Below are positions 16,781 through 58,588 of a DNA stretch of 64,000 nt, piece by piece. Source of the stretch: a virus (Duplodnaviria > Caudoviricetes); the IMG/VR virus record IMGVR_UViG_3300037067_013617, positions 1-64,000 of that record; one strand, written 5' to 3'. Positions within the stretch are counted from its first letter, which is position 1, and the number at the start of each line of letters is the position of its first letter. Position numbers and translations under genes: made by a program. The notes under the pieces are model-generated. The model saw only the letters and a program-made list of their open reading frames with translations. It ran no database searches and was not told the origin of the DNA.

Positions 16781-17665
16781 TTACTTTGCTCCTTTTTTTG
16801 ATTTAAAATATTTATCGATAAGGCCGAAACTCTTTCGGCCAAAATCTTCTTTTTTTTGTTGTTTAAAATGATCCATATATTCGGCTTTTCTCATCGGAAT
16901 ACGTCTTTCTTTAATACCTATAATAGTATCAATAAGATCAAGGCCGTCCTGATCGGAAAGAGTCAAATTTACAGGCTTTCCTTCAAGTGATTGCCTTGTA
17001 ACGGATCCGCCCGGCGTATTATACATATCCGATACAGACCCCGGCGCCATCAGTGCCTTCATTAAAACCTGTTCCTGTGCGATAACATTATCTTTATTGA
17101 CAGTAAAAGCGTCTATGTTATCAAATTCACAAATTATATCTTTAGCTTTTTGCAATAAGCGGACATTCATGCCGGGTGCTCGGTTCATTACATAAGGAGC
17201 CGGAGCAATAGCTAATTTATTCCATTTTATTTTAGGAATTATTTTATGAGTAGCGCCTTCGGCATCGTGAGTTTCGAGTATCATTTTACTGCCAGCCAGA
17301 GATGCGGCGTAGACAGGTTGATTCGCCTGAAGATGAGGCAACATTTCCTGTACGCGGGGATGTTTCTCCGTAAGTTCTGCGGTTACAACGGGCAATCCTT
17401 TTTCCCAGCGAAAAGCAACCGGTTTTCCTATAATGGCTGCGTTTTGCTCGGCCTTAGTAAGAGATTGACCATCGCTATCATGCCAGAAATCTATAACACC
17501 AATATCTAAAAAATTATTTACTTCGTCAGGAGAAAAAGCTTCTTTGAGAACAGTTTCCTGTTCCTGATCTTCGGTTAAATGATTTGCAATAATGTCAACG
17601 GTGACAATACCGGCTCTTGCTTTTTGGAGATTGGATATTTGAAGACCGTTTATTTGGAAAAGCAC
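16781..17665 (-). CDS. Prohead protease
   Basis: DQEQETVL, IDFWHD (catalytic His) and ASLAG (catalytic Ser region); internal copy of the MCP N-terminus. Confidence 0.85.
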   Translation of the reverse strand: MLFQINGLQISNLQKARAGIVTVDIIANHLTEDQEQETVLKEAFSPDEVNNFLDIGVIDFWHDSDGQSLTKAEQNAAIIGKPVAFRWEKGLPVVTAELTEKHPRVQEMLPHLQANQPVYAASLAGSKMILETHDAEGATHKIIPKIKWNKLAIAPAPYVMNRAPGMNVRLLQKAKDIICEFDNIDAFTVNKDNVIAQEQVLMKALMAPGSVSDMYNTPGGSVTRQSLEGKPVNLTLSDQDGLDLIDTIIGIKERRIPMRKAEYMDHFKQQKKEDFGRKSFGLIDKYFKSKKGAK

Positions 17666-17997: not shown

Positions 17998-20569
17998 CTT
18001 TCTTTTTCCCCTTGGGAGTTATATTTTCACCTATTTTTTCAACCGTTTCTCCCGCGGGTTGTACGGTATTTTTTCCGGATAAGGCATCAGCTAATAGATC
18101 GGCCATCTTTTTTAAAATACCTTTTATTTTTGTTTTCGTATCTCCTGTATCATTCTTATCTTTTTTATTATCTGTTTTTTTTTTGTCAACACCTTTGTCA
18201 TCTTTCTTGTCAGAAACCTTGTCCGAATTCTTACCTGATTTAACCGATTTCCATGTCCCGTCGGCCATCTTCTGCCGCTTCGTCCCATCTTTGTACGTCC
18301 GGACTTCGCCTATCTCAGCTTTTTTTGCTTTTTGAAGATCGGTGAGGAGAAGAGAAAAGGCTTTTTGGAGAGAATTTTGTTTTTCATTAATCAATTCTTC
18401 TATAGCTTTTATTCTTAATATATTATGCTCTGGATTTTCTTTAAATATTTTTAATTTTTCTTTTAATGAACTTATTGCTCTACCTTTATAATCGAAATCT
18501 TCTTTAATTGCATCTATCAATGGTCTTTTCTCGTTAGCTATTTTTAATTGGTCTTCTGATAATATTGTTTTATATTTTTTGTCGTTATTGTTCATTCCAT
18601 TTTGTAACAATTCTTCTATAGCTTTTATTCTTCCTTTTGTTTCTTGTGTTTGAGCCAATTCTTTCTGTATTTTTAAAATTTTTGTTAATTCATTTTTACT
18701 TTTAGTAGAATAAAAATCTTTTAAATGATAACCCTTTTGAAAGGTTTCATCTTTTTTTTCTGTTTCTATTTGTTCTTTTGTTTTCCCCGTCCCGAATCCT
18801 TTATCTGCTTTTTCTTTTTTATATTTATCAAATATTTGTTTTGCCCATTGTGCCGGTGTAGAATCTTTAAATTCTTTTATATCAATAGCCGCCTGTAAAT
18901 GATCTTCCATAATAGATAAATTATTTAATCCACGTTTTCCTCTTGGTTTCGTATCAAGAGATTCTATTAACTTCATAGCAGCTTTTCGTTGTGGCTCAAT
19001 CAATGATTGTCTTTTTCTTAATTCATTTAATGGCAATTTAGATAAAAATTCTATATCAGATTGATGTTGCTGTTCAGTATAAGTTAAAAGATCGTCACTA
19101 TTAACTCCTTTTTTCTTGTTTTCTTCTTTTAACGACATAACGCTTGTTTTGTCGTTGGCTTTTTCTCCCTGTAATTTGGTTATTGCAATTTGAGCGGCAT
19201 TATATACAGAGACAGCTCCGCGCCTTGCCTGTTTTATTTTTCCAGGACCTGCGCCACTATTAGCATTTTGATCTCTTCCTGCATCTTTTTGATATTTTTT
19301 TAAAATTTCTTTTAATACATCAATATTTTTATTTCTACCAATAGCATCAAGAACTCTTTGACCATCTTTTTGGATAGATTCTGGAACAGCTTCTTTAAAA
19401 ACGTTATGTCCTATTATGTCATATATATTTTGTTTTGTTTTTTCATCTAAATCAGCTATCAATTTTTCCTCTTTCTTCCCCTCTCCGCTCATAGATTTTA
19501 TTTTATCGTCAAGAATTTGAATTGCATCTTTGGTGTCTAATTCCTCCATCCACGTTGATCCTTTCAATTTACCAGTTTCAAATTTATTTTTTAAATCTTT
19601 AAGATATGAAATATTATTTAAGGTTTTTAATGCTATTTTAAATCCTTCAGCGCCCTTTAATCCTTCCTTCCCCTTGCTTTCGCCACTCACTATCCCTGCA
19701 ACCTGTTTCATCAAACTTAAATTATAGCTTTTATTATCTTTACCGGGAACGGTCGTCTTTTTATCTCCGGACGGAGACCGTTTGATTTCTCCGGTAGCTT
19801 TATTTTTTGTAATAATTTCTTTCTTCTGAAATTTTTTATCCCATTTATCTTTATTCGATAAATATTCATTTACGTAATCACTGAAGACATCGATGCTTAC
19901 GCCGGATAATTTTTCTTTATTGGTTTGATAAATCTGCTTAATTTTTTCCTGAGCCTGCTTCGTATCTTTAAATCCAAAGAAAGACATAATGCCTGATAAG
20001 ATACTTCCCTTTTTTCCTTGCTCTTCTTTGTACCAATATCTATATCCGCCTTTCCCGTCCGACTCGCGTTTAACGTACTTTGTCATCCGGGCTTTTTCCA
20101 TTTTACCGGATTTTAATTTCTTTTCCATTGCCATAAGTGCCTGATAATAATTCTTAAATTCAGCAAGATGATTCGCAGCAATATGTTTATAAACTTCTTT
20201 CTCCGGAGGCATTTCGTCATGTTTATTATAATAATCACGAATAAAATCAAAAGTTTCTTTATGCTCAGATTCTATTTTAGTACCGAGTTCAAGAGCGGAT
20301 TTGTCCTCTTTCATATATTTTCCGCTTTCGCTTCCCGCGATGGCCAAGGCCTGTTGACGACTTGTAACTATGCCTCCGCTGCCACTATGCAGTTTCCCTG
20401 TCTTGAATTCATGCATTACTGCCTCAAATTTATCGTCCGGATTCTTTAATTTTTTGCGTTTAGCGGCTCCGGCGCCGAGCTTATCCGGATGTTTATATGT
20501 ACTGGAAGGGACTGCTTTATCCATCGGCACGAATACATTGTCGAAGAGTTTAAGGAATAATTTTTTCAT
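17960..20569 (-). CDS. Large multi-module head-associated (putative internal/ejected) protein carrying the KY..R..DGKGG tag
   Basis: DUF6496-like VMHEFKTGKLHSGSG..VTSRQQALAI; DUF5661-like GTKIESEH...IAANHLAEFKNYY; tag MEKARMTKYVKRESDGKGGYRYWY; several LQKA sites. Confidence 0.65.
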   Translation of the reverse strand: MKKLFLKLFDNVFVPMDKAVPSSTYKHPDKLGAGAAKRKKLKNPDDKFEAVMHEFKTGKLHSGSGGIVTSRQQALAIAGSESGKYMKEDKSALELGTKIESEHKETFDFIRDYYNKHDEMPPEKEVYKHIAANHLAEFKNYYQALMAMEKKLKSGKMEKARMTKYVKRESDGKGGYRYWYKEEQGKKGSILSGIMSFFGFKDTKQAQEKIKQIYQTNKEKLSGVSIDVFSDYVNEYLSNKDKWDKKFQKKEIITKNKATGEIKRSPSGDKKTTVPGKDNKSYNLSLMKQVAGIVSGESKGKEGLKGAEGFKIALKTLNNISYLKDLKNKFETGKLKGSTWMEELDTKDAIQILDDKIKSMSGEGKKEEKLIADLDEKTKQNIYDIIGHNVFKEAVPESIQKDGQRVLDAIGRNKNIDVLKEILKKYQKDAGRDQNANSGAGPGKIKQARRGAVSVYNAAQIAITKLQGEKANDKTSVMSLKEENKKKGVNSDDLLTYTEQQHQSDIEFLSKLPLNELRKRQSLIEPQRKAAMKLIESLDTKPRGKRGLNNLSIMEDHLQAAIDIKEFKDSTPAQWAKQIFDKYKKEKADKGFGTGKTKEQIETEKKDETFQKGYHLKDFYSTKSKNELTKILKIQKELAQTQETKGRIKAIEELLQNGMNNNDKKYKTILSEDQLKIANEKRPLIDAIKEDFDYKGRAISSLKEKLKIFKENPEHNILRIKAIEELINEKQNSLQKAFSLLLTDLQKAKKAEIGEVRTYKDGTKRQKMADGTWKSVKSGKNSDKVSDKKDDKGVDKKKTDNKKDKNDTGDTKTKIKGILKKMADLLADALSGKNTVQPAGETVEKIGENITPKGKKKDVRNNERDRNKK

Positions 20570-20585
20570 GAAAGATGCATCCTAA

Positions 20586-20629
20586 AAAATAGTTTAATAT
20601 TCATTTAAAATAGAATATTAAACTATTTT
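20586..20629. promoter_or_regulatory. Perfect 17-bp inverted repeat (operator or hairpin) abutting a minus-strand TTGACA
   Basis: AAAATAGTTTAATATTC-N10-GAATATTAAACTATTTT; TTGACA on the minus strand at 20629-20634. Confidence 0.55.
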
Positions 20630-20637
20630 GTCAAGAA

Positions 20638-21459
20638 TTATTCAATAATGCCTTTAAATCCGGAAGCAAGAATTTTAGATTTAATTTCATTTTTCCAAAA
20701 TAACGAAGGAATTCTTATAATACATTTTTCATTTAATGTCGGAATAATTTCTGGAGAATAAATTTTAACACCATTTACTGTTTTCCCTATTTTTGCCGGG
20801 GTTTCGTCGATTATTCCAGTTGCTATGCCATCCCATGAATATAAAAATTCTCTACTGGCGCCATAATAATAAATTGGATACTCATTTTGTTTTTTTACGA
20901 ATGTTAATATTAAAGTAGGAATTTTTAATTTTCCATTTAGAATTTCCTGTTGTCCAGCTTTTTCTTCGAGTATATCAAAATCCTTTTTAAATAATTTTAT
21001 TATACTTGCGTGATAAAAATGTTGAATATGTTCTTTGATTACCGGGATATATCCATTATTGTATTGACCGGCGTCCGGTACCATTACCTGGAAAGTATCT
21101 AAATATTTTTTAATATTTTTAATAACTCCTTGTAAGTTCCAGCAATGTTCAAGGAAATCAATATAATCAGGGATGGCCGGAAAATCATAATCATTAACTT
21201 GTCTTAAATCCGTAAAATTTAATCCTTTCCTGATAGTAGGTGTATATATATTGTCGTAATATTCTTGTTCATAATATTTTTTTAAATTCCTTAATTCTTT
21301 TCTTGTTAATTGATTAAATAAATGCGTACAATCATTACAACTTATAAATCGAATATCTTTATATAATAAAGATTGATCTATCTTGTAAGTTTTAATAACC
21401 GTACCTTTTCTTAAATTTTTAGATTCACATACAGGACATTTCATGATATCTTCTCCCAT
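20638..21459 (-). CDS. Sugar C-methyltransferase-like protein, apparently internally shortened
   Basis: N-terminal CPVC...CNDC zinc site; LEH, VPD and EHIQHF motifs; C-terminal YGA...IIDETPAKIGKTVNGVKIYSPE; no obvious glycine-rich SAM motif. Confidence 0.6.
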   Translation of the reverse strand: MGEDIMKCPVCESKNLRKGTVIKTYKIDQSLLYKDIRFISCNDCTHLFNQLTRKELRNLKKYYEQEYYDNIYTPTIRKGLNFTDLRQVNDYDFPAIPDYIDFLEHCWNLQGVIKNIKKYLDTFQVMVPDAGQYNNGYIPVIKEHIQHFYHASIIKLFKKDFDILEEKAGQQEILNGKLKIPTLILTFVKKQNEYPIYYYGASREFLYSWDGIATGIIDETPAKIGKTVNGVKIYSPEIIPTLNEKCIIRIPSLFWKNEIKSKILASGFKGIIE

Positions 21460-22700
21460 TCTTTTAATTTTTTATCTTCAGGATAACATTTCGCATATTG
21501 CTTGATACTTCCCTTGCTTACACTGGCCCATTGCCGACTACGCCTCAATAATGCCACAATTCCAATTCTATCATCATCATTAAAAGGTTTTGCATATTTG
21601 CCGAGTGATTCCTTAAATAGATATGAGCCGATATTGTTTCCGTACCATGATTTTTTTGATTTATTAATCCACATGAGCTCAGTAAATTCCTGTTGCCATG
21701 CGGAGAGCATTGATTCTGTATTATAAATTGCTTTTACACTTTCTTTATGTAAAAATAAATTATCTTTATGTAAATAAATCCATTTTATAGACTCGGCATA
21801 TTTTTCTTCTGTCGATCTTATGCCAGTTCTCCAATTATCAACAATAAATTTTTCTGGCTCATTATCCAGCACTACCGGCACGACACCCGTTGCCATTGCT
21901 TCCCCGATAACCTGTTCGCATGTACCTATATGCTTTTCGTATAACGGATATCCGAATACATCCATCTGCGCATACCATTGTAATAATTCATCTTGATTTA
22001 ATTGTCCCGTAATAACAAACTTATCTGTCAGCCCTTTTTCTTGAATTTGTTCTTTAAGTAATTCCAAATCCGGCCCGCCACCACATACAATAAATTTAAC
22101 ATTAGGAATATCAATATCAGCACATAAACTAACGAAATCGGGATGGATCTTACTATTGAAATCAATAGTCCCACAATAACCAACGTTAAAAGTATCTCCA
22201 TGAAGTACCTTTTTAATATTATAAAATTTTGTTAAATCGGATACGCTCCAAATAACACCAAACTTTTGTTTTTGTTTATCCGATAATTCCTGATATTCTT
22301 TTGCCTGATAACTTACCGGCGATGTAAATATAAATCTATCACACATATCGACTAATCTCTCAGGGATAACATAGGGCGGATTAAGACAGTTTGAATGTGA
22401 CCAGATAACAAGGCGACATTCAGGTATATTCTGCAAACACAGAAATTCATATAACAAAGGATTATTATACCAATGTAATAAAACAATATCATTACATTTA
22501 ATAAGATAATTAAGTTTTTCAGGCCAGTTTCTTAATCCATGATAAGCATCTTCAATTTGTACACTTCTTGAATCATTCGGATTGAGGCACCCTATTGTAT
22601 GTATATTTTTATTATCATGTTTAATTAAATTATCAATAACAGCTCCGACTCCGCCACCTAAATGTACAGCTACATGTAAAATTTTCATCGGCAACTCCAT
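21441..22700 (-). CDS. GT-B glycosyltransferase (GT4 family)
   Basis: KILHVAVHLGGGVG; FIVCGGGPD; DVFGYP...EQVIGEAMATGVVPV (Ex7E-like). Confidence 0.85.
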   Translation of the reverse strand: MELPMKILHVAVHLGGGVGAVIDNLIKHDNKNIHTIGCLNPNDSRSVQIEDAYHGLRNWPEKLNYLIKCNDIVLLHWYNNPLLYEFLCLQNIPECRLVIWSHSNCLNPPYVIPERLVDMCDRFIFTSPVSYQAKEYQELSDKQKQKFGVIWSVSDLTKFYNIKKVLHGDTFNVGYCGTIDFNSKIHPDFVSLCADIDIPNVKFIVCGGGPDLELLKEQIQEKGLTDKFVITGQLNQDELLQWYAQMDVFGYPLYEKHIGTCEQVIGEAMATGVVPVVLDNEPEKFIVDNWRTGIRSTEEKYAESIKWIYLHKDNLFLHKESVKAIYNTESMLSAWQQEFTELMWINKSKKSWYGNNIGSYLFKESLGKYAKPFNDDDRIGIVALLRRSRQWASVSKGSIKQYAKCYPEDKKLKEWEKIS

Positions 22701-22706
22701 AATATA

Positions 22707-24296
22707 TTATTCAAAAGAATATCCTTCTTCTTTAAATTTCTCTATAATATTATCATAAAAAGAATTTTTATTGATAAAATGATTATAATGCATATTCATT
22801 TTATCATCATCTCCCATATTTTGATATATTCGATATAACATATAATGAGCAATTGCCTGATTCGGATAATGATTTACTACGTTTTGAAAATATTTTAGAC
22901 AAATATCATATCTCTTGTTTTTAAAATTACTGTTTTGTAAATAATTAACAACAATATTCATGTAATATGCATATTCTTCTATCGCTTTTGGATCCACTCC
23001 CGGAGCTTTAATATTACATTTCCCTACGGTATAATCATTATAATCTTTACTCAAAAGATATCCGGCATCTTGACATTGCTGATATAAACGACTGCCTGCA
23101 ATAGGTACTACTATAAATATATGAGCCCAATCTATTTCAGTATCTAATAATATTTGTAAGGATTCCGCCCTGTCTTCATCTGTTTCAAATGGAAAACCTA
23201 TAATAATGAATGCATGTAACCGAATATCATATTGTTTAAGAATTTTAACTGCTTTAAATATCTGTTCCCGGCGCAAAGGTTTATTGATAATATCTTTTAA
23301 AATATGATCCGACCCGGATTCAATTGCAAGCGGCAACACTTTTATTTTACATTCGCTAAAGGCCTTAGCAATTTCTTCATCTATTTGAAATACCGCTACA
23401 CCATTAGGAAATTCAATATTAATATTTAAATTTTTAAATTCAGATAAAAGATATAGTGCCCGATCTTTATTCGCTAAAAAATGATCGTCTTCAATAAGTA
23501 ATATATCTAATTTATATTCATCGATATAATGTTTAACAGTTTCAAGCACTCGACGAGCTGACATCTTGCGGATTCTTTTTCCATGCACTGTGCCGTTGCT
23601 GCAATACACACAAGAGAAAGGACATCCCCTGGACGTATGGATGCTTACTTCGATTTTATCTTTTATGTCTTTGTCGATATATGATCTTCCATTATATTTT
23701 TTTAAATCAATATAACTAAAATCTATCAGAGGTATTTCATCAAGATTTTCAATAAAATCATATTGTGGTAGAATTCCGGTTTTAATCGTTTCTCTTGTAA
23801 TCCATGCAGGACTATTTATAGAATTCGTTTCCAATAATTTTTTAAATGGAATTTCCCCTTCGCCATAACATGCTAAATTTATTTCCGGTATTTCGTTAAA
23901 TAAATCTTGATATAAATTTGTTGCTAATCCTCCGCCTACAATCAATAAACATTTAGGAATAATTTCCCGACAAGTTGCTGCGATATATTTTAGATGGGGG
24001 AAACATGTATTGAAAAGGGCGGAAATACAAATACAATTCGGTTGGAAATCATTAAGTAAATTTTTTAAAGCATCAATTATATCAATTTGAGGATCTATTA
24101 TTTTTGAATTTATTAAAAGATCATTAATATCAAATATTCTTATATCGTGTTCTTTATTTTGATTGATATAAGATATAATTGATAATACTCCATAAGGCGG
24201 AGTCAATGTCGGAAGTTTCAACCCAGCCATCTTTGGGTTGTATTCATCAAATGGTAGATAAGGCGGAATTATAAATAATATTTTATTTCGCGGCAT
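22707..24296 (-). CDS. Cobalamin-binding radical SAM enzyme (class B methyltransferase-like)
   Basis: PPYGVLSI, IVGGG, GEGE (B12-binding domain); TSRGCPFSCVYC; IESGS; FIIGFPFET. Confidence 0.9.
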   Translation of the reverse strand: MPRNKILFIIPPYLPFDEYNPKMAGLKLPTLTPPYGVLSIISYINQNKEHDIRIFDINDLLINSKIIDPQIDIIDALKNLLNDFQPNCICISALFNTCFPHLKYIAATCREIIPKCLLIVGGGLATNLYQDLFNEIPEINLACYGEGEIPFKKLLETNSINSPAWITRETIKTGILPQYDFIENLDEIPLIDFSYIDLKKYNGRSYIDKDIKDKIEVSIHTSRGCPFSCVYCSNGTVHGKRIRKMSARRVLETVKHYIDEYKLDILLIEDDHFLANKDRALYLLSEFKNLNINIEFPNGVAVFQIDEEIAKAFSECKIKVLPLAIESGSDHILKDIINKPLRREQIFKAVKILKQYDIRLHAFIIIGFPFETDEDRAESLQILLDTEIDWAHIFIVVPIAGSRLYQQCQDAGYLLSKDYNDYTVGKCNIKAPGVDPKAIEEYAYYMNIVVNYLQNSNFKNKRYDICLKYFQNVVNHYPNQAIAHYMLYRIYQNMGDDDKMNMHYNHFINKNSFYDNIIEKFKEEGYSFE

Positions 24297-25029
24297 GTAT
24301 ATCCAGCCAGCCTAATGCTAAATTTTGATTATCAATTTCTTTCAATTCTTTATACTTCATGTACTGTGTCAAACATTCATCAAAAGATAAATATTTTTCA
24401 TCTCGAAATAAATCATCTCCGAATAATCCGGAATGATATTTCCCGAATTTATAATTTATTGATTTATCTGTTTTATCTTCATTATTTGCCTGGTTAATAA
24501 GTTTAAATTTAGTATAATCGCAAGCATATAAAAAACTAAAAATTTTATAATAATCAAAGCGCGATAATTCAAAACTTAAAAATAAAGGACCTTGACCAAC
24601 AAAGGATGGATCTATTAACCATGCAAATAGTTGCCGTATAACTAAAAAATCTAATCCTTCAATATCTGTTTTAATAAAATACGGTATTCCATATTCTTGA
24701 AATAGATATTTTAAATTTATTGTTTTTACTGATTGTTTAATAACAGTATCAGATGATTTCCAAAATGATACTTTAACGGGATCGCATGTGCTCCAGTCTG
24801 AATGTTCTTTATTGATATAAAATAAATAATCAATATCATTGATATCGTAAAATATCTTATTTAATAATATTAGTTGACCGGATTTTATTTCCGAAGCGAA
24901 TCGATCTGTTCCTTTGTATATTAATTCTGGATTTGCATCAACCGCTATTACTTTATAATCCTTTTTTAAATAATAATCAGTATCATCTCCATTATGAAAT
25001 CCAAGATCAAAAATTGTTTTTTCAAACAC
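24283..25029 (-). CDS. FkbM-family methyltransferase
   Basis: IFDLGFHNGDD...VIAVDANP; FIKTDIEGLD. Confidence 0.85.
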   Translation of the reverse strand: MFEKTIFDLGFHNGDDTDYYLKKDYKVIAVDANPELIYKGTDRFASEIKSGQLILLNKIFYDINDIDYLFYINKEHSDWSTCDPVKVSFWKSSDTVIKQSVKTINLKYLFQEYGIPYFIKTDIEGLDFLVIRQLFAWLIDPSFVGQGPLFLSFELSRFDYYKIFSFLYACDYTKFKLINQANNEDKTDKSINYKFGKYHSGLFGDDLFRDEKYLSFDECLTQYMKYKELKEIDNQNLALGWLDIHAAK

Positions 25030-26002
25030 TTAACATTCTCCTTAATATTTTTTCTGCTGATATATCTAAATTAACAGGCATCCCCCGGATCAATTGATCG
25101 CATTCTCTGCAAATATGATATTTATTTCCTTTGAGCATATTCATTTGAATATTTTTAAGAAATTTTCCGTCCCATATTTGTTTTACAGATTGCTTATTAA
25201 TATGTCCTAATAATATTCTTTGGTCCCAATCCAAGAAACAGATAGAGGCATAACCCGATGCTTGAAAAACCAGGGTATAAAATATATATGGACATATTTG
25301 AACATTATCTAATGGCTGCCCATATACTCCAACTTCTTTGTTTATATTATTAACTTTTGTATCGTACCAGCAATTCATCGTATGTTCAATACCCCTGCCA
25401 TCACTGATGGGAGTGAATATATCAAAGAATTGTTGTTGTTCTGCTTCAGATAAATAGTCGCCGTTGATCTTAATATATATTTCACATTGTTTTTTATGTT
25501 GATATAAATAAGTTAAATTTTCGATAAAATTATTCCAACAGATATTAAATCCACAAAATTTTTTATATTGTTCAGCATTTATTCCTTCAATTGAAATATT
25601 TATTCGATCTATACCGGCATCAATAATTTCTTCAACATTAGTCCTGCCATTTGATTTCGGAGATCGATTAAACAAACTTGCGTTTGTTGTAGTATCTACT
25701 TTTAATACCTTATTAGATTGCTTCGCATAAGCAACCATATCTGGAAATTTTTTATTCATCAAGGGCTCACCGAATCCATATAACCGTATTGTTTTTATTG
25801 GATTTTTAAAGTCCTGTAAATCATCAATTATTTTCTTATATAATTCAAAATCCATAACTTGCGGATTTCTTATCTTCGAATTCATACAAAATTTACATTG
25901 AAAATTACAGGCATTAGACGGATCAATGAAAATAACGTATGGAGATTCTAGGGGGATCTCATTCGCTAAATCAGTTCTATTTTCAAGTTGTATTCTTTTC
26001 AT
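25022..26002 (-). CDS. Radical SAM/SPASM-domain protein
   Basis: CNFQCKFC; GFGEPLMN; TTNAS; C-terminal CPYIF...IC..DW...CREC; likely start MKRIQL at 26002. Confidence 0.9.
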   Translation of the reverse strand: MKRIQLENRTDLANEIPLESPYVIFIDPSNACNFQCKFCMNSKIRNPQVMDFELYKKIIDDLQDFKNPIKTIRLYGFGEPLMNKKFPDMVAYAKQSNKVLKVDTTTNASLFNRSPKSNGRTNVEEIIDAGIDRINISIEGINAEQYKKFCGFNICWNNFIENLTYLYQHKKQCEIYIKINGDYLSEAEQQQFFDIFTPISDGRGIEHTMNCWYDTKVNNINKEVGVYGQPLDNVQICPYIFYTLVFQASGYASICFLDWDQRILLGHINKQSVKQIWDGKFLKNIQMNMLKGNKYHICRECDQLIRGMPVNLDISAEKILRRMLSV

Positions 26003-26009
26003 CTTTTCC

Positions 26010-26897
26010 TTATAAAAATATATGTTTACTTTCCCGTACTGAAGTCGCAACGGTACAATTTTCGCATAATTTTAAGTTCGAGATATTTCCTTTCTTTATT
26101 TCCTCTCGATAATGTTTAAATAATGCATGATTATATAATTCGATAGGATCTTCATACAATATGTTTCCGATATGTATTTCTCCGAATTGATCACCGCAAC
26201 AAAAACCTATTTCTCCATCGGAAAATATTTTAAATTTATATATTTCACCACAATATATGTTAGGTAATATTTTCGCATCTTTTGGTTTTTTTTGTAAATC
26301 ATCGCCTGCGTTATTTACATCGTATGCTAATATCATGTCGCCATATTTTTTATTTAATTTCTTTGACCAGAATTTTAAAAAATCATCCCATTCGTAATAA
26401 TTTATTTCCTGCCTTGTAAATCTAATTATTATTTTTACGTTTTTGTCTTGTTTCTCTCTTTCTTTTAGAAGAAAATCAATATTATTTATAATTCTTTCAA
26501 GTTTTAATCCCATCCTAATTTTTTCATAAACTGCTGAAGAAAATCCATCAATGCTAAAAATAAATACATCAATTCCCGCGGACAACAATTGTATAGTTTG
26601 GTCCTCGGTTAGATTCATTCCATTCGTAAATATTCCGACTTCGGTAAAATTATGATCTTTTGCTATTTTTATTTTTTCAGAGGTATGTGGATCAAGAAGC
26701 GTTTCTCCAAGTCCAAGCAATGTAAATATTTTAATATTATTTTTAATCGGCAACAATTTATAAACGATTTTTTCAAAAATATCGTTTGTCATAATTTCTT
26801 TTTTTCTGCTTCTCGCAATAGGACACATAATACATTTTGAGTTGCAATAACCGGCAACAGTCTCTATCTGTACTTGCGTTGGTATAATATTTTCCAT
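26010..26897 (-). CDS. Radical SAM/SPASM-domain protein
   Basis: CNSKCIMC; GLGETLLD; FTNG; FSIDG; C-terminal C...FCCGD...IGNI...CENC. Confidence 0.9.
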   Translation of the reverse strand: MENIIPTQVQIETVAGYCNSKCIMCPIARSRKKEIMTNDIFEKIVYKLLPIKNNIKIFTLLGLGETLLDPHTSEKIKIAKDHNFTEVGIFTNGMNLTEDQTIQLLSAGIDVFIFSIDGFSSAVYEKIRMGLKLERIINNIDFLLKEREKQDKNVKIIIRFTRQEINYYEWDDFLKFWSKKLNKKYGDMILAYDVNNAGDDLQKKPKDAKILPNIYCGEIYKFKIFSDGEIGFCCGDQFGEIHIGNILYEDPIELYNHALFKHYREEIKKGNISNLKLCENCTVATSVRESKHIFL

Positions 26898-27545
26898 TTA
26901 CATAATCCTATGCGTATTTATATTTGTATTGTATCTGCCTTTTTCATAAAAAGATTTAAAAACTCCTATTTCTGATAAGATAAGAATGTCATCCGGCCAT
27001 TTATTGCGAAGATTTTCAGCATATTGTCCATCGTCGCATGAAGATGCTTCCTGAAATCGTGTTTGTTTTAAAATATCTCCTCTTACGATCATTTGGCATA
27101 AATCAATATTAGCAACACGAATATCATTAAGATTATGTTGATATAAAGGAGCGGCAGGCCATTGATATGCAGTATCAGTAGGTGCCGGAGAGTTATCGCC
27201 TCTACTCGCTGAAAAAATAATTATTTTAGCATTTGTGAATTTCATTATTTTTTGAATAAATCCGGGAGCATACATATCATCATCTCCGAGAAATCCATAA
27301 TAATGATCGTCAATAATAGTTGCCAATTCAATAAATCTATTTAATTTTTCGTATCCTACCATATAATGATTTTTGATTTCGGACACAATGGGTTGGATAA
27401 AAGATTCTGTCTCTTTTTCAAAATATTTTATTTCATGTGGCTCACATATAGGATGCCAATAAACATCCATATTTTTAATATCTTTTTTAATTGTTTCATG
27501 TAAATATTCCCGATAAAAAGCCATAACTATATGGAAATTTAACAT
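26898..27545 (-). CDS. GT-A (GT2-like) glycosyltransferase
   Basis: YYGFLGDDDMY DxD motif; IDLCQMIVR; DDG. Confidence 0.7.
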   Translation of the reverse strand: MLNFHIVMAFYREYLHETIKKDIKNMDVYWHPICEPHEIKYFEKETESFIQPIVSEIKNHYMVGYEKLNRFIELATIIDDHYYGFLGDDDMYAPGFIQKIMKFTNAKIIIFSASRGDNSPAPTDTAYQWPAAPLYQHNLNDIRVANIDLCQMIVRGDILKQTRFQEASSCDDGQYAENLRNKWPDDILILSEIGVFKSFYEKGRYNTNINTHRIM

Positions 27546-27558
27546 TATTTTCGTCTCC

Positions 27559-28245
27559 TTATCTCATTGTTTCTTGCCCGCGAGTCATACTGCCAGGCTT
27601 ATCGACATGTTGACACTGTATCTTCGAATAATTAGCCAACCTGAAATTATTACCATTTCGATGTGCGTCATAGCTCATCCATGCATCTGGGAATGCTCCC
27701 AAATTTTCTGTACTCCATCGGAAAGGAATTTTTTCAATGACTTCGCGTTTATAAAGAGAACAGCCGCTAAGAACATGATGCGTTTCCTGAAAGATAGTAG
27801 GATCTTCAAATAATTTTATATCATGAAAACCATGATAATAAATACCTCCGATTATATCTGCTTTATCGATAACTTCCATGAAATAATGCAGCCAATCCGC
27901 GGGCGGAATGACATCAGACTCGACTATTATAAAATATTTACATTTAGTTTCTAAAAAAATATTTCTTAAAAAGGAAAGTGATTCCGCGACGTTTCTCTGG
28001 AACTGAGTAGTAGGATCATCCCGGTCTACAAAGATATGCGAAACATGTATATTCCGATGGACATTTATACTTTTTATAATATCTTTAATTCGTTCAGCGT
28101 AACTGGCATGAATTGTATTATCAACAACGTGGATAGATGCATCACCAATATCGGATTGTAAAAGATTTTTAAAAAATTGTTCATCGCAGTAGCTTTTGCA
28201 CTCGTGGCTATATATAGCAATAAAAAAATCAGTATAATTTATCAT
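27559..28245 (-). CDS. GT-A (GT2-like) glycosyltransferase
   Basis: IHVVDNT; YFIIVESDVIPP; GCSLYKREVIEKIPF; PD; C-terminal His. Confidence 0.75.
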   Translation of the reverse strand: MINYTDFFIAIYSHECKSYCDEQFFKNLLQSDIGDASIHVVDNTIHASYAERIKDIIKSINVHRNIHVSHIFVDRDDPTTQFQRNVAESLSFLRNIFLETKCKYFIIVESDVIPPADWLHYFMEVIDKADIIGGIYYHGFHDIKLFEDPTIFQETHHVLSGCSLYKREVIEKIPFRWSTENLGAFPDAWMSYDAHRNGNNFRLANYSKIQCQHVDKPGSMTRGQETMR

Positions 28246-28272
28246 AGGATATAGCCCCTTATTAATGTTTTA

Positions 28273-30654
28273 TTATTTTTTGATCTTAAATATTTGATTC
28301 TTATATCTATAGAAACCTTTTAATAGAGCGTCATTATTTTGCAAGAACTTATCTATTGATGGCATAATTTTTTCAACAAAAATTTCTTCTGTCGGATGAT
28401 TCGGACTTTTTACATCCATAATATCATTATTTTTTGTTTTAATCGCCCAATATTGTTCCATAGCACGTGCGAAACATTCACAAGTCCTATTTTGATATTT
28501 AGATGTCTGTTTTTTTACCATATTTTTTCTAAATGTACTAGCTATTTCACCTGCAATATCTTCCGGATTATCTGATGCATAATGTCTGCCTGTTTTTTCA
28601 CCGATATAATAATCCATAAAATGTCCCCACTCATGGGAGATAATAAAACCTGTTCCTTTGTCTCCATGTGCAGTTACACCAATTGCGTGCATAGAAGGAA
28701 TAAACAATCCGATAGCCTTTCTTGCGTGCATCATCTTATCACCAGCATGGGATATCTTTAGCCCAAATGTTTTAGCCATTGATGATTTATTCCCGAAAAC
28801 GGAAAAAAGATCATCCATTGCAGATTTAATTTCCTGAATTTCTAACTCATTTATTTCTGCTCCGTTTTGACGTTTTACTTTTACGCCGTAATCCTGTAAT
28901 AAATTATCTTTAGTTCCTTTGTCGCCGTATGCAGTTTCTTTTCCCTTCGTATATGTACTGTAATAATCTTCAAGCTGAATTTCCATATCTTCTGTTTTCT
29001 GTTTTAAATCCTGACGCAACCAACGATAAATTTCCCATAAATTTTTAGTTTCATAACGGCTCCCGCCGGTAAAGCTATTGATAAGATCCATTTGATGGTA
29101 AGAAATTTTATTCTCAGGCAGCATCGTAATACGCTTTTTCCTTGTACGCAATGCCTGGTCTTCTTTTAATTTAGCCTTTGCTTTCTTTAGATAATAATCC
29201 TGCGTTGCGGCGAATACATCTCTATTAACTATCGCAAAATTATTTTCACCTATTTCTTTTCCCCAATCTCTGATACTCGGAGCCATTCTTTTAGCATTAA
29301 GCGCTAACAAATATTTATCTTCACCGAGTTTATATGCAGGAATAAAATAATTTGACGATCTGAAATACGCTTCGTCAACTTCAGGAATATATGCCGGACG
29401 GGGATCGGTTAAAATAGTCTTTTCCTTTGCTAGATATATATCTTTCGGCCTTACCGCTGTATAATCTTTGGCTATATATTTTACAGGCTGTTTATCTTTG
29501 CCGCTGAATGGAATTTCAACCTCTGTATCAGTAGGATTAAATTTTGATACCGGCATTATTACATCCTCCTGTTTTATTTCAGGAATATCCAATATCTCAC
29601 GTTCAACTTCATTCCGTGTTTCCGGAGTCGCTTTATTTATAGCTTCTGCGATTTTAATGTCTTTTTTCTTCTGCTCAGGAGTTTCTTCTGTTGACATTTC
29701 GGCTGTCTCTTCCTCCTCCTCCGCCGGTTGTGCAGGAGCAGATTCTATAACCGGTTCGGCAGGAGTTTCTATCTTTTCTATGATTTTTTCTTTTTCAAAT
29801 CTTTTTAATTGTTCATTTTGACCATTTAAAACCTGAGTCCATTTATTAATATAATCAGTATAAACAGATTTTGTATCGAATGGAACTTCCCCTCTTTTTT
29901 CTCTATATCCTTTTATGGTTTTTTCCGTGTCTTTAATGTTTCTTTTTAAATTTTCTATTAAAAGAGATTGTTCACTGCTATCCATTTTATAAAAATTTTG
30001 TTTTATTTCATAAGATGATGGATTATCTTGTCCAGTTAATTCTTTTGCCCTTTCTTTTGAAATATCCGGTAAAATAGATGATTCTTCCAATATCTCAATA
30101 GCAGGTGTTTCCTTTTTCCCATAAATATTAAATATCTCCCGCATAACCTGCAATTTGAGCCCGGTCATACTCTCTTTCTTTTCTTTCTTTTCGGCAGGCT
30201 TTTCTTCTTTCTTTTCTTTTTTCTCAGGCGTTGTTTTTTGTTCTTTCTTTCCGGAAAAGAATTTATCCCACTTTTCTTTATTCATGAAATAAGCAGATAC
30301 ATGAGACTTCCAACTGTCCCAAGTTAAATTATATTTCTTCCCGATCTCATGCGATTCGTAATCTTTCATTACCTGTTTCATCGCCTGATTCTTATCCTTG
30401 AAATTAAAGAATCCGGCTATTTTTGACAACCAGCCTTCCTGTTGATCTGCTTTAAATTGATTATATTCTGCTTGAGTATAGAAATAACTGAATCCTTTAC
30501 CGTTGGCTTTCGGGACTCGTTTGACATATTTATGTCCGGGACGAATATCGCCGGAGGCTTTCTGTATATTTTGTGATTTAATATTATTTTTTTTACGATA
30601 GAATCCGAATGGAATATCTAAATAGTTATTTATAATTTTATTAATATCTTTCAT
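28273..30654 (-). CDS. Tagged polyvalent-type protein with C-terminal LPD1-like zincin domain
   Basis: Tag IQKASGDIRPGHKYVKRVPKANGKGFSYFY; C-terminal ISHEWGHFMDYY...ECFARAMEQY. Confidence 0.75.
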   Translation of the reverse strand: MKDINKIINNYLDIPFGFYRKKNNIKSQNIQKASGDIRPGHKYVKRVPKANGKGFSYFYTQAEYNQFKADQQEGWLSKIAGFFNFKDKNQAMKQVMKDYESHEIGKKYNLTWDSWKSHVSAYFMNKEKWDKFFSGKKEQKTTPEKKEKKEEKPAEKKEKKESMTGLKLQVMREIFNIYGKKETPAIEILEESSILPDISKERAKELTGQDNPSSYEIKQNFYKMDSSEQSLLIENLKRNIKDTEKTIKGYREKRGEVPFDTKSVYTDYINKWTQVLNGQNEQLKRFEKEKIIEKIETPAEPVIESAPAQPAEEEEETAEMSTEETPEQKKKDIKIAEAINKATPETRNEVEREILDIPEIKQEDVIMPVSKFNPTDTEVEIPFSGKDKQPVKYIAKDYTAVRPKDIYLAKEKTILTDPRPAYIPEVDEAYFRSSNYFIPAYKLGEDKYLLALNAKRMAPSIRDWGKEIGENNFAIVNRDVFAATQDYYLKKAKAKLKEDQALRTRKKRITMLPENKISYHQMDLINSFTGGSRYETKNLWEIYRWLRQDLKQKTEDMEIQLEDYYSTYTKGKETAYGDKGTKDNLLQDYGVKVKRQNGAEINELEIQEIKSAMDDLFSVFGNKSSMAKTFGLKISHAGDKMMHARKAIGLFIPSMHAIGVTAHGDKGTGFIISHEWGHFMDYYIGEKTGRHYASDNPEDIAGEIASTFRKNMVKKQTSKYQNRTCECFARAMEQYWAIKTKNNDIMDVKSPNHPTEEIFVEKIMPSIDKFLQNNDALLKGFYRYKNQIFKIKK

Positions 30655-31545
30655 TTAATCAATCTCCTCTAAATATATTATCGTTTTGTCGAACCATTCC
30701 TTTTCTATTTTTTCTTTTTTTATTATTTTATATTTTCCTTTAGGAATTACAATTTCTTTTTCATGCTTATATAATGAAAATGGACTTATGTCTACACCAC
30801 GAGTATTATTTGCAATTATAAATTTTAAATTGAATCGTTCTTTTGAACCATGTTTTAAATATCCTCCCGGAGCAGAAAATGAAGACATAGAATCAATTTC
30901 AAATATATCATTTTCTTTAACTGAATCGTATAATTGATCTTTGAAATCTTCAAATACTCTAAAAATTTCACCATTATATTTAGGAGCATTTTGAATATAT
31001 TTTTTTAATGTATTATATATTTCAAAATGATTTTTTTTTAAACCTATATTTTTTTCTTTATCAATAATTCCTTTATCTATCTTTTTAACAATACTGCTAT
31101 TCGCTATACCATCATTATCTTCAGTCCATGCCATTATATTAAAAAAATTTTCTTCATTTATATCTATTTTATCTTTTTGATTATTAATTAAAACTTTTTT
31201 TCCTGTACCCAATCCTATATTTTCCTCTGCTTTCCCTCCCTTTTTCCCTTGTCCTTCCCTATACCAATATTTCCAACCGCCTTTCCCGTCCGGTTCTCTG
31301 CGGATATACTTTGTCGGACGAGCCTTAGTCATATCAATTTCATAATCTTCATAACCAGTCTCTTCTATTCGTTTTATTTTAAGTACGGGTTTGTGATACC
31401 AATCATATGTAACCTGTTTATTAACCTGTTCAGTAATTTTTTGTTTTTCATCTTCAGATAATGTTTTAGTAGAATTATTATTCGGAAGATCAGCGTACAT
31501 GCTATGAATAATATTATTTTTACCATCTAAATATATTTTACTCAT
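30655..31545 (-). CDS. Tagged ADP-ribosyltransferase (VIP2/C3/Alt-like R-S-E clade)
   Basis: YNGEIFRV (R), SMSSFS (STS-like), VDISPFSLYKHEKEIVIPKG (ExE); tag MTKARPTKYIRREPDGKGGWKYWY. Confidence 0.85.
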   Translation of the reverse strand: MSKIYLDGKNNIIHSMYADLPNNNSTKTLSEDEKQKITEQVNKQVTYDWYHKPVLKIKRIEETGYEDYEIDMTKARPTKYIRREPDGKGGWKYWYREGQGKKGGKAEENIGLGTGKKVLINNQKDKIDINEENFFNIMAWTEDNDGIANSSIVKKIDKGIIDKEKNIGLKKNHFEIYNTLKKYIQNAPKYNGEIFRVFEDFKDQLYDSVKENDIFEIDSMSSFSAPGGYLKHGSKERFNLKFIIANNTRGVDISPFSLYKHEKEIVIPKGKYKIIKKEKIEKEWFDKTIIYLEEID

Positions 31546-33536
31546 TTTGTTACCTTTTTATATTCAATATTAAAATCATTTTTTAAAACAGAAGATTCTT
31601 GTACCAAATCCCAAAATATTTCCCGATGTATTTTCTCCGCTTTATATGGAGTTATTTCTTTTGATTTAACTTTAGGAGTTAAAATACTAAAAACTTTTTC
31701 ATTAATGCTATTTAAGACATTTATAAAAGTAGTATTTTTATTCTTCAAATCATAAGATTCTCCAAATTCATCTGAATTTCTTGATTTTTTTTTGTGACTA
31801 ATTTTAAAAGAATAAATATCATTTGGAGTCTTTACTCTTATTTCTTTTATTCCCAAACTCAGCGCTAAAAATACATCCTCAACACTAAATGATACATCTT
31901 CAGGATGAGTATGCGTCAATATTTCAATATTTCTTAATTGCTTTACCTCGTTCTCATCAAATTCTATTTTATCATATATTCCTTCTTTATGGAATAAAAT
32001 ATTTCCATCTCTATCGATAACATTTACTTTTTCCTTTCCTGAAGGATTTATATCTTTTTCTATATTGTTTGTTGTTAATAAAGATGCTTTAGAAGTTTCT
32101 GAATGACCGATTCTTTCCTCAAACCCGATTAAGTTATAATTAAATAATAAATTATGACTATCAAATTTCATTTTTAACTTTATATTTTCTTCATCATTTT
32201 CACCTTTAAATTTTTTTTTTATGTCTTCTTTATAAAAATATCTATACCCGCCTTTCCCATCGGGAGACCTGCGGACATATTTATGACCGGGGCGGATGTC
32301 ACCGATGGCTTTAGCAAGAGATTCTTTTTTTAAATCAGGATAATCTTTTAATACTTCATCAGGAACACTTTTACCTATTTTAAGAGCATTTTTAACTGCG
32401 TCTTTATGTCCTTTATATTTTTTCCAATCATTGGTAATAAAAATCACAGGTTCGTCATCGCCGCCTGTTCCGATCTGTCTTCCTTTTCCATAATGAGTAA
32501 TATTCCCACCTGCCATGCTTCCAGATATTGGCGTTACATATACACTTACGCCTCGTTCTTGTTTATTGTCCATGTGATTATAGCTTCTTCCGCTTTTCGG
32601 AGGTTGCCCTGATCTATAAAAATCTCGTTCCTCACCTAAAACATAAACATCGCCATCATTGTCTTTTGCATATTTTTTTGCTTCTTCGGCGTTATCAAAC
32701 ATTTTTATTCTTTCTTGTTCGTTCCATCCTCGGAATAACCATTCTGCTTTATTCTTCTTAGCAAAATCTATCTGTTCATCATAATTAGTGACGACTTGCA
32801 TGTCAGCATAAGTTATTGGAGTACTTGCTTCATCTTTTGTTAATTGCCAAATTTCTTTTTTCGGAGTTAATTTTTTTAAATGACTTTTATATTCCTGTTT
32901 AGTTCTATTTTTTTCTTTTTCTATATCTTCCGATTTATCTATTTCATATGCTTTGCTTTCCATTGCAAACGGTTGTAAATCTGATGCAAAATATCCTCCT
33001 CCGAATATATAATGTTTCTCTGGATCATACGTGATCGTTTCTTTACCATTATTATATTTGGCCTCAAACGATTTATTATTTAGAATTGCTTCTGATAATT
33101 TTTTACCAATATCAACATTGGCTTTATCTTCTTCATCTTTTATTTTATAATTTTTAATTTTTCCTAAAAATTCATTTTGTAACCTTTGAAGTTCAGGCTT
33201 AATTTCATTAAATTTATTTTCTTTAATTTTCAACAAAGAAGACGGTTCTTTTAATTCATTGTATAATCTTTGTTTTTCTTTATGAAAATCCACTTTCGCT
33301 CCTTTTGCTTCACCCTGCCCCTCCCTATAAAAATACCTCCATCCACCTTTGCCGTCAGCCTCTCTGCGAATATATTTTGTTATCCGAGCTTTCTCCATAT
33401 CCTCATAATAATCAGGATCTTCGTCAAGGCGCTTTATAGCCATTCTTGTCGCAATCAATACATTGCCTGCTTTCTGCAGCTCAATTTCTATGGCATCGCG
33501 AAGCTGACGCGGTGAGTAATTTTTAAAGAGTTTCAT
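31542..33536 (-). CDS. Doubly tagged polyprotein: DUF5661-like N-terminus, ART-like middle domain, C-terminal JAB/MPN-like domain
   Basis: Two tag copies; YRSG.PP.SGRSYN...ERGVSVY...GGDDEP; KEKV..IDRDG...LTHTHPEDVSFSVED (E...HxH...S..D). Confidence 0.7.
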   Translation of the reverse strand: MKLFKNYSPRQLRDAIEIELQKAGNVLIATRMAIKRLDEDPDYYEDMEKARITKYIRREADGKGGWRYFYREGQGEAKGAKVDFHKEKQRLYNELKEPSSLLKIKENKFNEIKPELQRLQNEFLGKIKNYKIKDEEDKANVDIGKKLSEAILNNKSFEAKYNNGKETITYDPEKHYIFGGGYFASDLQPFAMESKAYEIDKSEDIEKEKNRTKQEYKSHLKKLTPKKEIWQLTKDEASTPITYADMQVVTNYDEQIDFAKKNKAEWLFRGWNEQERIKMFDNAEEAKKYAKDNDGDVYVLGEERDFYRSGQPPKSGRSYNHMDNKQERGVSVYVTPISGSMAGGNITHYGKGRQIGTGGDDEPVIFITNDWKKYKGHKDAVKNALKIGKSVPDEVLKDYPDLKKESLAKAIGDIRPGHKYVRRSPDGKGGYRYFYKEDIKKKFKGENDEENIKLKMKFDSHNLLFNYNLIGFEERIGHSETSKASLLTTNNIEKDINPSGKEKVNVIDRDGNILFHKEGIYDKIEFDENEVKQLRNIEILTHTHPEDVSFSVEDVFLALSLGIKEIRVKTPNDIYSFKISHKKKSRNSDEFGESYDLKNKNTTFINVLNSINEKVFSILTPKVKSKEITPYKAEKIHREIFWDLVQESSVLKNDFNIEYKKVTK

Positions 33537-34897: not shown

Positions 34898-34898
34898 A

Positions 34899-35024
34899 TT
34901 ATCTTGCCTTATTCTTATATATTCGTATAGTTTCTTCATCTACCTGATTGTACCAAAATTTACGAGCAAATCGGGCAACTTCGGTTTCCCATACAGGAGC
35001 ATATTGTTTGAATATATCGATCAT
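34899..35024 (-). CDS. Possible 41-aa ORF (MIDIFKQYAPVWETEVARFARKFWYNQVDEETIRIYKNKAR)
   Basis: Fills the gap between two genes and stops 1 nt before the next ATG; below the ORF-track cutoff. Confidence 0.4.
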   Translation of the reverse strand: MIDIFKQYAPVWETEVARFARKFWYNQVDEETIRIYKNKAR

Positions 35025-58372: not shown

Positions 58373-58588
58373 TTAAGTTTGTTTTAGATAAGACTTATTG
58401 CTGGCATACCCTGTTTTGCTGTTGCCGGTCCGCCCCTGGACGACTCTAACCGCGATATTAGTCTTTGAGTAGTCTCTATGCATGAGCGCCCGGCAGGCAT
58501 CACATATTATATGCTCAGGGAACTCTCCTGCCGTCCATTCCTCTTTCTCTCTATCGCATTTAGGACAAACATAATCAGCTCGTTTCAT
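58373..58588 (-). CDS. FmdB-like zinc-ribbon protein
   Basis: DYVCPKC...ICDAC..LMHR. Confidence 0.65.
   Translation of the reverse strand: MKRADYVCPKCDREKEEWTAGEFPEHIICDACRALMHRDYSKTNIAVRVVQGRTGNSKTGYASNKSYLKQT

Follow-up and report, generated by a model that had tools for sequence, protein, structure and literature searches.

The stretch of DNA analysed here, which we call the window, is the first 64 kb (64,000 nucleotides) of a 91,942-bp IMG/VR virus record (IMGVR_UViG_3300037067_013617) that is rated complete, and it belongs to a myovirus of ~92 kb in which almost every gene lies on the minus strand. At positions 20638-28245 the window carries eight contiguous minus-strand genes whose open reading frames (ORFs) abut or overlap, with exactly the coordinates given in an earlier reading made from the sequence alone (the sequence-only reading), which took them for an operon of glycosyltransferase, radical S-adenosylmethionine (SAM) and methyltransferase genes inside the head module. 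The positions of the large terminase (TerL), portal, major head protein (MCP) and tail sheath genes confirm that the block lies within that module. We number the genes of this cassette g1 to g8, 5' to 3' (Table 1), and find that five of the eight (g3-g7) score above curated cut-offs in searches against Pfam, NCBIfam and PHROGs. Our structural, comparative and phylogenetic data suggest that the cassette very probably serves to build and tailor a glycan.

Table 1. The cassette genes, the cassette boundaries and other features discussed in the text (window positions unless another source is named).
Feature	Position	Strand	Size or evidence
g1, GT-A fold glycosyltransferase, no Pfam model for family	27559-28245	-	228 aa
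g2, small GT-A glycosyltransferase, mainly viral family	26898-27545	-	215 aa
g3, radical-SAM enzyme with Cys-rich C-terminal (SPASM/twitch) domain	26010-26897	-	Radical_SAM 51.7 bits, SPASM 26.2 bits
g4, twitch-like radical-SAM enzyme, most conserved cassette member	25022-26050	-	Pfam Radical_SAM 73.3 bits, plus SPASM
g5, FkbM-family SAM methyltransferase	24283-25029	-	PF05050 28.5 bits (cut-off 22.7)
g6, cobalamin-binding (class B) radical-SAM enzyme with tetratricopeptide repeat (TPR)-like tail	22707-24296	-	PF02310 36.3 bits, PF04055 76.0 bits
g7, GT4 (GT-B) glycosyltransferase	21441-22700	-	PF00534 57.7 bits
g8, C-methyltransferase-like, without SAM-binding motif-I region	20638-21459	-	273 aa
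GT_58585, remote glycosyltransferase	58585-59565	-	phrog_7162, 2e-26
Upstream boundary of insertion, 27-bp junction after 793-aa gene, no terminator	28246-28272	-	
Downstream boundary of insertion, spacer upstream of 869-aa gene	20570-20637	-	TTGACA-N16-TATTTT promoter-like site, 20634-20607
Cassettes of sister phages	L116:4617-17088 (G010), L117:1588-11142 (G011)		
TerL	54336-55817		
Portal	49882-51462		
MCP	14462-15964		
Tail sheath	7937-9703		
Tyrosine recombinase	68962-69861 of own genome (L118:12963-13862), outside window		299 aa, PF00589 80.9 bits

We found that two of the glycosyltransferases (GTs) of the cassette, g1 and g2, are recognisable mainly by fold and motif. In the case of g1 the match to the Pfam GT2 model is sub-threshold (18.5 bits, cut-off 23.3), and in none of its 85 homologues is there a Pfam domain for the GT region. 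Its AlphaFold (AF2) model, built from 30 homologues and with a predicted local distance difference test (pLDDT) value of 94.8, has a GT-A fold by Foldseek comparison with the PDB (template modelling (TM) scores of 0.6-0.69 to COLGALT1, POMGnT1, WrtF and TarS), and the ExD motif E109-x-D111 is invariant in the 30 homologues. For g2 a Pfam scan returned no family match; its Atlas model matches GT2 clusters with TM scores of 0.70-0.84, the nearest clusters being 100% viral, and the DDD motif at residues 88-90 is invariant among homologues. Both proteins thus combine a GT-A fold with a DxD-type motif. The g2 family, with 369 cluster representatives among 1.84 billion proteins, also occurs fused to GT2 and to a domain resembling GT_58585, and the g1 family is probably mainly viral too, judged by the sources of its homologues. 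GT_58585 itself, which the sequence-only reading had listed as a fourth GT far from the block, proves to be a real one, and PDB sequence searches with it and with the neighbouring 729-aa protein gave no match. Homologues of GT_58585 with 46% identity adjoin the cassette in viral contigs L089, L090 and L091, the database protein P0253 is a fusion of a g2-like with a GT_58585-like domain, and the gene is conserved beside the cassettes of two sister phages; these observations link GT_58585 functionally to the cassette.

Three cassette proteins, g3, g4 and g6, have both a CX3CX2C motif and a match above the Radical_SAM Pfam cut-off of 29.5 bits, and are therefore radical-SAM enzymes. In g3 the motif reads CNSKCIMC (from C18) and is accompanied by five C-terminal Cys residues, and the nearest PDB sequences are BlsE and BtrN. 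In g4 residues C48/52/55 and C227/253/271/314/317 are invariant across 27 homologues, and its AF2 model (pLDDT 87.8) finds BtrN as the best fold, then BlsE and DesII, with these sugar-acting enzymes outranking the peptide maturases CteB, SuiB and anSME. The sequence-only reading had called both proteins radical-SAM-SPASM enzymes, a label that holds insofar as both exceed the Pfam SPASM cut-offs. However, the SPASM subfamily is defined by seven or eight conserved C-terminal Cys residues and two auxiliary [4Fe-4S] clusters, and with five such residues each and, for g4, the one-cluster twitch enzyme BtrN as best fold, g3 and g4 look twitch-like and would probably bind one auxiliary cluster. The third enzyme, g6, has the class B architecture of an N-terminal B12-binding domain (PF02310 cut-off 32.1 bits) and a radical-SAM domain, with the motif CPFSCVYC (C225) and, at residues 453-505, a match to TPR; its nearest PDB sequences are those of AprD4 and TokK. 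The family is a large one, with no fewer than 1585 homologues, of which many share 40-65% identity with g6. The closest protein matches (65% identity) are on contigs of 130-147 kb. Since the named NCBIfam equivalogs all fall far below their cut-offs, g6 is a member of no characterised subfamily, and it may be a methylase. In viral contig L090 the B12-radical-SAM homologue (L090:13437-15911) is an ORF of 824 aa in which ~1 kb of extra sequence separates a half that matches g6 residues 3-230 from a half that matches residues 228-487. The solved enzymes most closely related to g3, g4 and g6 (BtrN, BlsE, DesII and AprD4) all act on sugars; they are distant (13-17% identity, TM scores of about 0.5-0.6), and the structural matches fit sugar substrates and a single auxiliary cluster of the twitch type while leaving the type of reaction unfixed.

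Two further genes of the cassette are methyltransferase-like. Besides its Pfam match, g5 reaches 34.4 bits against TIGR01444, slightly under the cut-off of 37.7. In g8, which has no Pfam match, the zinc-ribbon Cys residues at positions 8, 11, 41 and 44 are invariant. Of a class-I methyltransferase domain it has only the second half, and its C-terminal domain is weakly similar to that of sugar C-methyltransferases (Methyltransf_14 in the TylC3 type); Atlas matches are to Methyltransf_23 and C-methyltransferase clusters. The alignment has a gap across motif I that recurs in the homologues from viral contigs L004 and L087, whereas bacterial relatives keep the motif, and g8 is shorter (273 aa) than its counterparts in L004 (330 aa) and in other viral cassettes (395-397 aa). 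Because the SAM-binding region is missing, g8 falls outside the TylC3-type nucleoside diphosphate (NDP)-hexose C-methyltransferases and is probably not a methyltransferase at all; the C-methyltransferase likeness proposed for it is borne out by the zinc ribbon and C-terminal domain, and as an enzyme of this kind it is probably inactive.

Polytopic membrane proteins and sugar-nucleotide synthesis genes were not found in the phage. No transmembrane segment is predicted in g1-g8 or in GT_58585, and all eight cassette proteins are predicted to be soluble. The sequence-only reading had seen neither nucleotide-sugar synthesis nor flippase genes, and this extends to the whole 92-kb genome, where tblastn with 4,6-dehydratase, RmlC, RmlD and GDP-mannose dehydratase (GMD) queries was empty and no ORF has four or more transmembrane-like segments, which sets the cassette apart from Wzx/Wzy- or ABC-transporter-dependent loci.

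Comparison with close relatives shows how the cassette came to its present place. Two complete sister phages (84.9 and 83.6 kb) have the same head-tail gene order, direct terminal repeats and MCPs that are 69-70% identical, and in both of them the 793-aa and 869-aa genes that flank the block here have orthologues that stand next to each other with no block between, so that by synteny the block is an insertion in the head-gene array. In sister L101 the 84-bp spacer at this site (L101:5620-5704) consists of a hairpin with a T-run and then a TTGACA promoter-like element, which hints at sigma-70-type signals in the host. In the window the block takes the place of the terminator part, and a TTGACA element still precedes the 869-aa gene. 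The lack of a terminator between the upstream head genes and the block suggests that they are co-transcribed. Both sisters carry radical-SAM genes elsewhere, in different glycan cassettes beside their GT_58585 homologue, which include a g1 homologue (52% identity), B12-radical-SAM genes (24-31%), a dehydratase-like gene and methyltransferases, some of the genes being 44-46% identical to those of bacterial islands; in G010 there are about twelve genes, among them a 543-aa B12-radical-SAM, a 350-aa radical-SAM and the dehydratase-like and g1-homologous genes. All three complete genomes of the lineage thus keep a glycan cassette together with GT_58585, with content and position of the cassette varying.

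Beyond this lineage the cassette is rare in phages. Megablast and tblastn searches of 50,697 GenBank phages returned only Streptomyces phage SF3 (23.6%), and thus nothing closely related to the block, g2 or g6. In IMG/VR, L004, a relative with 80% identity, carries the block at this site too, there with ten genes including a fourth radical-SAM gene, and a g2 profile retrieved ten further viral contigs, several of them near-duplicates. Variants of the cassette are thereby found in about a dozen viral contigs, at least nine of them distinct after near-duplicates are set aside. Nearly all have g2, g4, a g8-like protein and g7, while g1, g3, g5, g6, extra methyltransferases, a sulfotransferase and a GDP-mannose dehydratase vary. 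A phylogeny, which the sequence-only reading had proposed against host lipopolysaccharide loci, places the nine viral g4 rows in one group with long branches (maximum likelihood, Shimodaira-Hasegawa-like approximate likelihood ratio test support 98; near-duplicates L086, L091, L093 and L097 left out), whose sister is a small mixed group of bacteria and archaea. We therefore reject a recent, near-identical capture of a host lipopolysaccharide locus, given this single long-branched viral group and the 36-49% identity to bacterial copies, and the cassette lineage looks as if it has long circulated among phages.

Its neighbours differ from contig to contig: a primase and a transposase in L089, an RNA ligase and TnpB in L086 and L098, an HNH endonuclease in L090, an SMC-like gene in L087, and virion and adaptor genes in L096. 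The transposase adjoins the cassette of L089 (L089:7511-8578) and an IS605-type TnpB/OrfB gene lies within that of L086 (L086:13389-14615); such genes are possible vehicles for cassette movement. A recurring ORF of ~188 aa in other viral cassettes was considered as an acceptor; it proved to encode a small SAM methyltransferase, and this genome lacks it.

The relatives of the cassette in bacteria and archaea point to its chemistry. We fetched 80 loci around g6 homologues. About 65 of them have homologues of g4 and g7 no more than 10 kb from that of g6, and about 40 have one of g5; by another count, g4 homologues were found in 67 of 84 loci, g7 homologues in 62 loci and g5 homologues in 45. Homologues of this core (g4 radical-SAM, g5 FkbM, g6 B12-radical-SAM and g7 GT4) are 36-49% identical to the phage proteins and often in the same order, the g7 homologue usually following directly on that of g4, and the bacterial g6 homologues retain the TPR-like tail. 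In three loci that we annotated in detail (Falkowbacteria, Rhizobium and Geobacteraceae) the core stands beside genes for an NDP-hexose 4,6-dehydratase, a 3,5-epimerase (RmlC) and, in two of the three, an RmlD-type reductase, together with an intact TylC3-like C-methyltransferase, a rhamnosyl O-methyltransferase and a GT2 or GT10 enzyme. Moreover, a 1359-aa Geobacteraceae protein (L034:15878-19957) unites two GT2 domains with two radical-SAM/SPASM modules, which ties such radical-SAM enzymes to glycan synthesis. Several other bacterial loci have genes for proteins of 1290-2360 aa downstream of the cassette.

Flagellin proteins from five of the bacterial genomes served as queries and placed a flagellin gene no more than 10 kb from the g6 homologue in 18 of the 80 loci, these 18 representing at least nine families. 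The chance expectation for a random 21.6-kb window is ~1% by a rough estimate from the flagellin positions; some of the loci are not independent of one another. Flagellin genes directly adjoin the cassette homologue in Pseudolabrys, and in two Nitrospira genomes a flagellin gene apparently lies ~3 kb past the fetched locus, if the contig numbers match. ABC-2 permease genes in five bacterial genomes were not consistently near the cassette. The likeness to bacterial O-antigen or flagellin glycan-tailoring loci that the sequence-only reading had noticed is supported, the core having its homologues in 6-deoxyhexose glycan loci, part of them flagellin-linked, and in core homology and the absence of membrane machinery the phage block is like the flagellin-island type. 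Flagellin is glycosylated in the cytoplasm by soluble enzymes that act directly on the protein with no lipid carrier, and flagellin-linked homologues therefore fit the idea of a protein glycan put forward in that reading. Our search of open-access papers and preprints turned up no work on flagellin glycosylation or O-antigen loci that deals with radical-SAM enzymes, and no biochemistry on these radical-SAM families or the bacterial islands.

Taken together, our data are best accounted for by a methylated, radical-tailored glycan that is built by soluble enzymes on a protein, most likely a virion protein, to which we give a probability of about 0.45. A cytoplasmic protein acceptor is favoured by the lack of transmembrane segments, of polytopic membrane ORFs and of sugar-nucleotide genes, and by the flagellin link, and the mainly viral families of g2 and probably g1 fit virus-specific acceptor steps. 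Gene identities, homology, the insertion and the lack of membrane machinery are observed, whereas we infer each chemical step and the acceptor as follows. The cassette would be an accessory, horizontally mobile set for glycan assembly and tailoring, drawn from the toolbox of bacterial 6-deoxyhexose loci, with the host supplying NDP-sugars, SAM, cobalamin and reductant and the phage supplying only soluble enzymes. The GT-A enzymes g1, g2 and GT_58585 and the GT4 enzyme g7 would build a short glycan directly on the acceptor in the cytoplasm. This glycan might then be O-methylated by g5 and methylated at an unactivated sugar carbon by g6, whereas the twitch-like g4 and g3 would abstract a hydrogen atom from a sugar, leading to oxidation, epimerisation or deoxygenation of the residue; g8, having no SAM site, could be a scaffold only, or be decaying. 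By analogy with flagellin decoration the likeliest acceptor would be a structural protein that the phage produces concurrently, and a hypervariable glycan on it could alter the virion surface and thereby shielding, stability or adsorption. The fuller proposal, in which the glycan sits on the phage's own particle, the three radical-SAM enzymes tailor it by C-methylation and by radical oxidation or epimerisation, and close relatives swap, in a serotype-like manner, a toolbox that is shared with flagellin islands, is more tentative still.

Several results weigh against a glycan on the virion, or at least do not help it. The Ser/Thr-rich insertion domain that the sequence-only reading had seen in the MCP does not hold up, as the protein reaches a maximum of 9 Ser/Thr per 30 residues, and there is no Ser/Thr-rich tract in any window protein (maximum 12/30). 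Presence or absence of the block at this site makes no difference to the MCP, which is collinear, equally long and has the same C-terminus in both cases. An acceptor tract of the mycobacteriophage type on a capsid or tail-tube C-terminus was not found (no Ser/Thr tract, no MCP extension), and neither the tract search nor the MCP comparison identified an acceptor. No non-enzyme gene co-travels with the viral cassettes, and g8, one gene of the cassette, is degenerate in its alignment. The head-module position is not kept either: synteny in related phages, a check that the sequence-only reading had named, shows both sisters without the block at this site, and since the neighbours of viral cassettes are varied and often non-structural, position says little on the target and is weak evidence for a virion one. 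A promoter and terminator scan was uninformative (97 promoter-like sites, 92 expected). In 62 of the 80 bacterial loci there is no flagellin gene within 10 kb, and these may make a lipid-linked polysaccharide, while the tyrosine recombinase encoded beyond the window (Table 1) makes lysogenic conversion possible. Of the virion glycan first proposed, then, the glycan cassette, its soluble enzymes and its flagellin-linked relatives stand, whereas an acceptor tract, a conserved position and an intact g8 do not.

The strongest rival is that the enzymes act on the host, on undecaprenyl-linked O-antigen or capsule precursors or on flagellin glycan, and so change the cell surface, to the end of superinfection exclusion or lysogenic conversion. 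Bacterial homologues of the cassette do lie in cell-surface glycan loci, the cassette itself is accessory and variable in position, the genome has the tyrosine recombinase just mentioned, and the authors of a pelagimyophage study suggested that GT genes in a hypervariable region, with radical-SAM cassettes nearby, modify the host O-chain (PMC7029224). However, the recombinase may be only an Xer-like resolvase, and the block is part of an array of head genes that all point one way, where no terminator precedes it, unlike the usual moron expressed in lysogens. The seroconversion modules known to us use membrane proteins, and proteins of that type are not encoded here, given that no ORF has enough transmembrane-like segments; mainly viral families such as that of g2, and probably that of g1, would also be odd for host acceptors. 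We consider this explanation less probable than a glycan on a phage protein but a serious rival to it, clearly ahead of the two that follow.

That the cassette places a modified sugar on the bases of phage DNA, for restriction evasion, is improbable. Phage GTs can hypermodify DNA with diverse glycans according to Pyle et al. 2024 as cited in PMC12619734, the GT-A families are mainly viral, and GT_58585 lies near the terminase and non-structural genes. Yet the complete 92-kb genome has no thymidylate-synthase-like hydroxymethylase (PF00303) and no radical-SAM genes other than the three in the block, which together make DNA glycosylation unlikely; the core is shared with bacterial glycan and flagellin loci rather than with known DNA-modification clusters, and the block shows no enzyme for a modified nucleotide precursor. 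Glycosylation based on 5-hydroxymethylcytosine or 5-hydroxymethyluracil in particular is rejected, as the genome lacks any gene of the thymidylate-synthase family. Chemistry other than on a glycan, such as the modification of peptide or protein side chains in the manner of RiPPs (peptides made on the ribosome and modified after translation) or the making of a soluble glycosidic small molecule, is the least probable of all, for although SPASM-type and B12-radical-SAM enzymes are typical RiPP maturases with weak NCBIfam matches here, the TPR tail of g6 could bind a protein, and the closest characterised relatives (BtrN, BlsE, DesII and AprD4) come from antibiotic pathways, the NCBIfam RiPP models are all far below cut-offs, the fold search ranks sugar-acting radical-SAM enzymes before peptide maturases, and a RiPP cluster is rejected because the abutting genes leave no room between them for a precursor-size ORF (gaps of 27 and 68 bp only), though a peptide gene elsewhere is conceivable, and the bacterial context is one of sugar metabolism, with NDP-6-deoxyhexose synthesis and GTs including the GT2-radical-SAM fusion.

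A glycan on a phage protein thus remains our preferred reading, and known systems resemble the proposed one in different respects. Closest in working are the uncharacterised bacterial flagellin/6-deoxyhexose islands of Pseudolabrys (L014), Nitrospira (L020) and Geobacteraceae (L034), which likewise use soluble enzymes; they encode a dehydratase, epimerase, reductase and intact C-methyltransferase, all of which the phage block is without, and the block, unlike them, has g1 and g2, GT-A enzymes of families that are mainly viral (for g1, probably so), and the degenerate g8. Mycobacteriophage virion glycosylation is similar in having GTs among structural genes, no carrier or flippase genes, and an accessory, variable character, but the phage here has no C-terminal extension or Ser/Thr tract and is of an unrelated lineage. 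We know of no mycobacteriophage glycosylation cluster with radical-SAM enzymes. The glycans of those phages are described as sitting on the C-termini of capsid and tail-tube subunits (Freeman et al. 2023, as cited in PMC12619734). Pelagimyophages and cyanomyophages have cassettes of GT and radical-SAM genes in a hypervariable 'host recognition cluster', in descriptive reports that favour host O-chain modification or 'antibiotic synthesis' (PMC7029224; PMC12801897), and their pattern is like the swapping between this phage and its sisters, a likeness by description only. For the single enzymes, BtrN, DesII and BlsE are the best fold or sequence matches of g4 and g3; their substrates are small antibiotic precursors, in contrast to the glycan or glycoprotein context of the phage enzymes. 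TokK and GenK, both class B methylases, share the B12 and radical-SAM architecture of g6.

Some further features of the head module and genome may be recorded. The 'tag' that the sequence-only reading saw in the genes on both sides of the cassette corresponds to a repeated motif of ~30 aa, which occurs in the large flanking genes and in genes upstream of the cassette in copies that are 70-72% identical (30247-30531, 31237-31332, 32190-32336, 33312-33398 and 19820-20080); the L004 orthologues of these genes match DUF5661. MCP residues 17-62 are 65% identical to residues ~195-240 of a neighbouring 294-aa protein (16781-17665; similar regions at 15779-15916 and 16946-17083 of the window, minus strand), a pairing also seen in L004, which may reflect a docking or cleavage motif shared with a protease- or scaffold-like protein. 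The gene at 33908-34939 fuses an N-terminal part resembling 5'-3' deoxyribonucleotidase (phrog_2643) to a second domain known from minor head proteins and DarB-like polyvalent proteins. The 299-aa tyrosine recombinase may be an integrase or an Xer-like resolvase, and it has an orthologue with 50% identity in sister phage G010.

The cassette is real, well defined and rare in phages, and a new form of virus-encoded glycosylation. Glycosylation of phage particles by their own enzymes has been documented in few systems, all with ordinary glycosyltransferases, and the cassette described here is compact and carrier-free, with no reaction known for the families of its three radical-SAM enzymes. It is found again in about a dozen contigs of uncultured phages and in bacterial loci that number in the hundreds, many of the latter flagellin-adjacent. 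Its eight soluble genes, without pathway genes, make it a small and tractable system for sugar-acting radical enzymes that are widespread. Should the virion be what carries the glycan, this would matter for the adsorption, stability and immune recognition of the phage and would account for the swapping of whole cassettes among close relatives. No earlier case of virion glycosylation would depend on radical-SAM enzymes, and viruses would have their own counterpart to the diversity of flagellin glycans.

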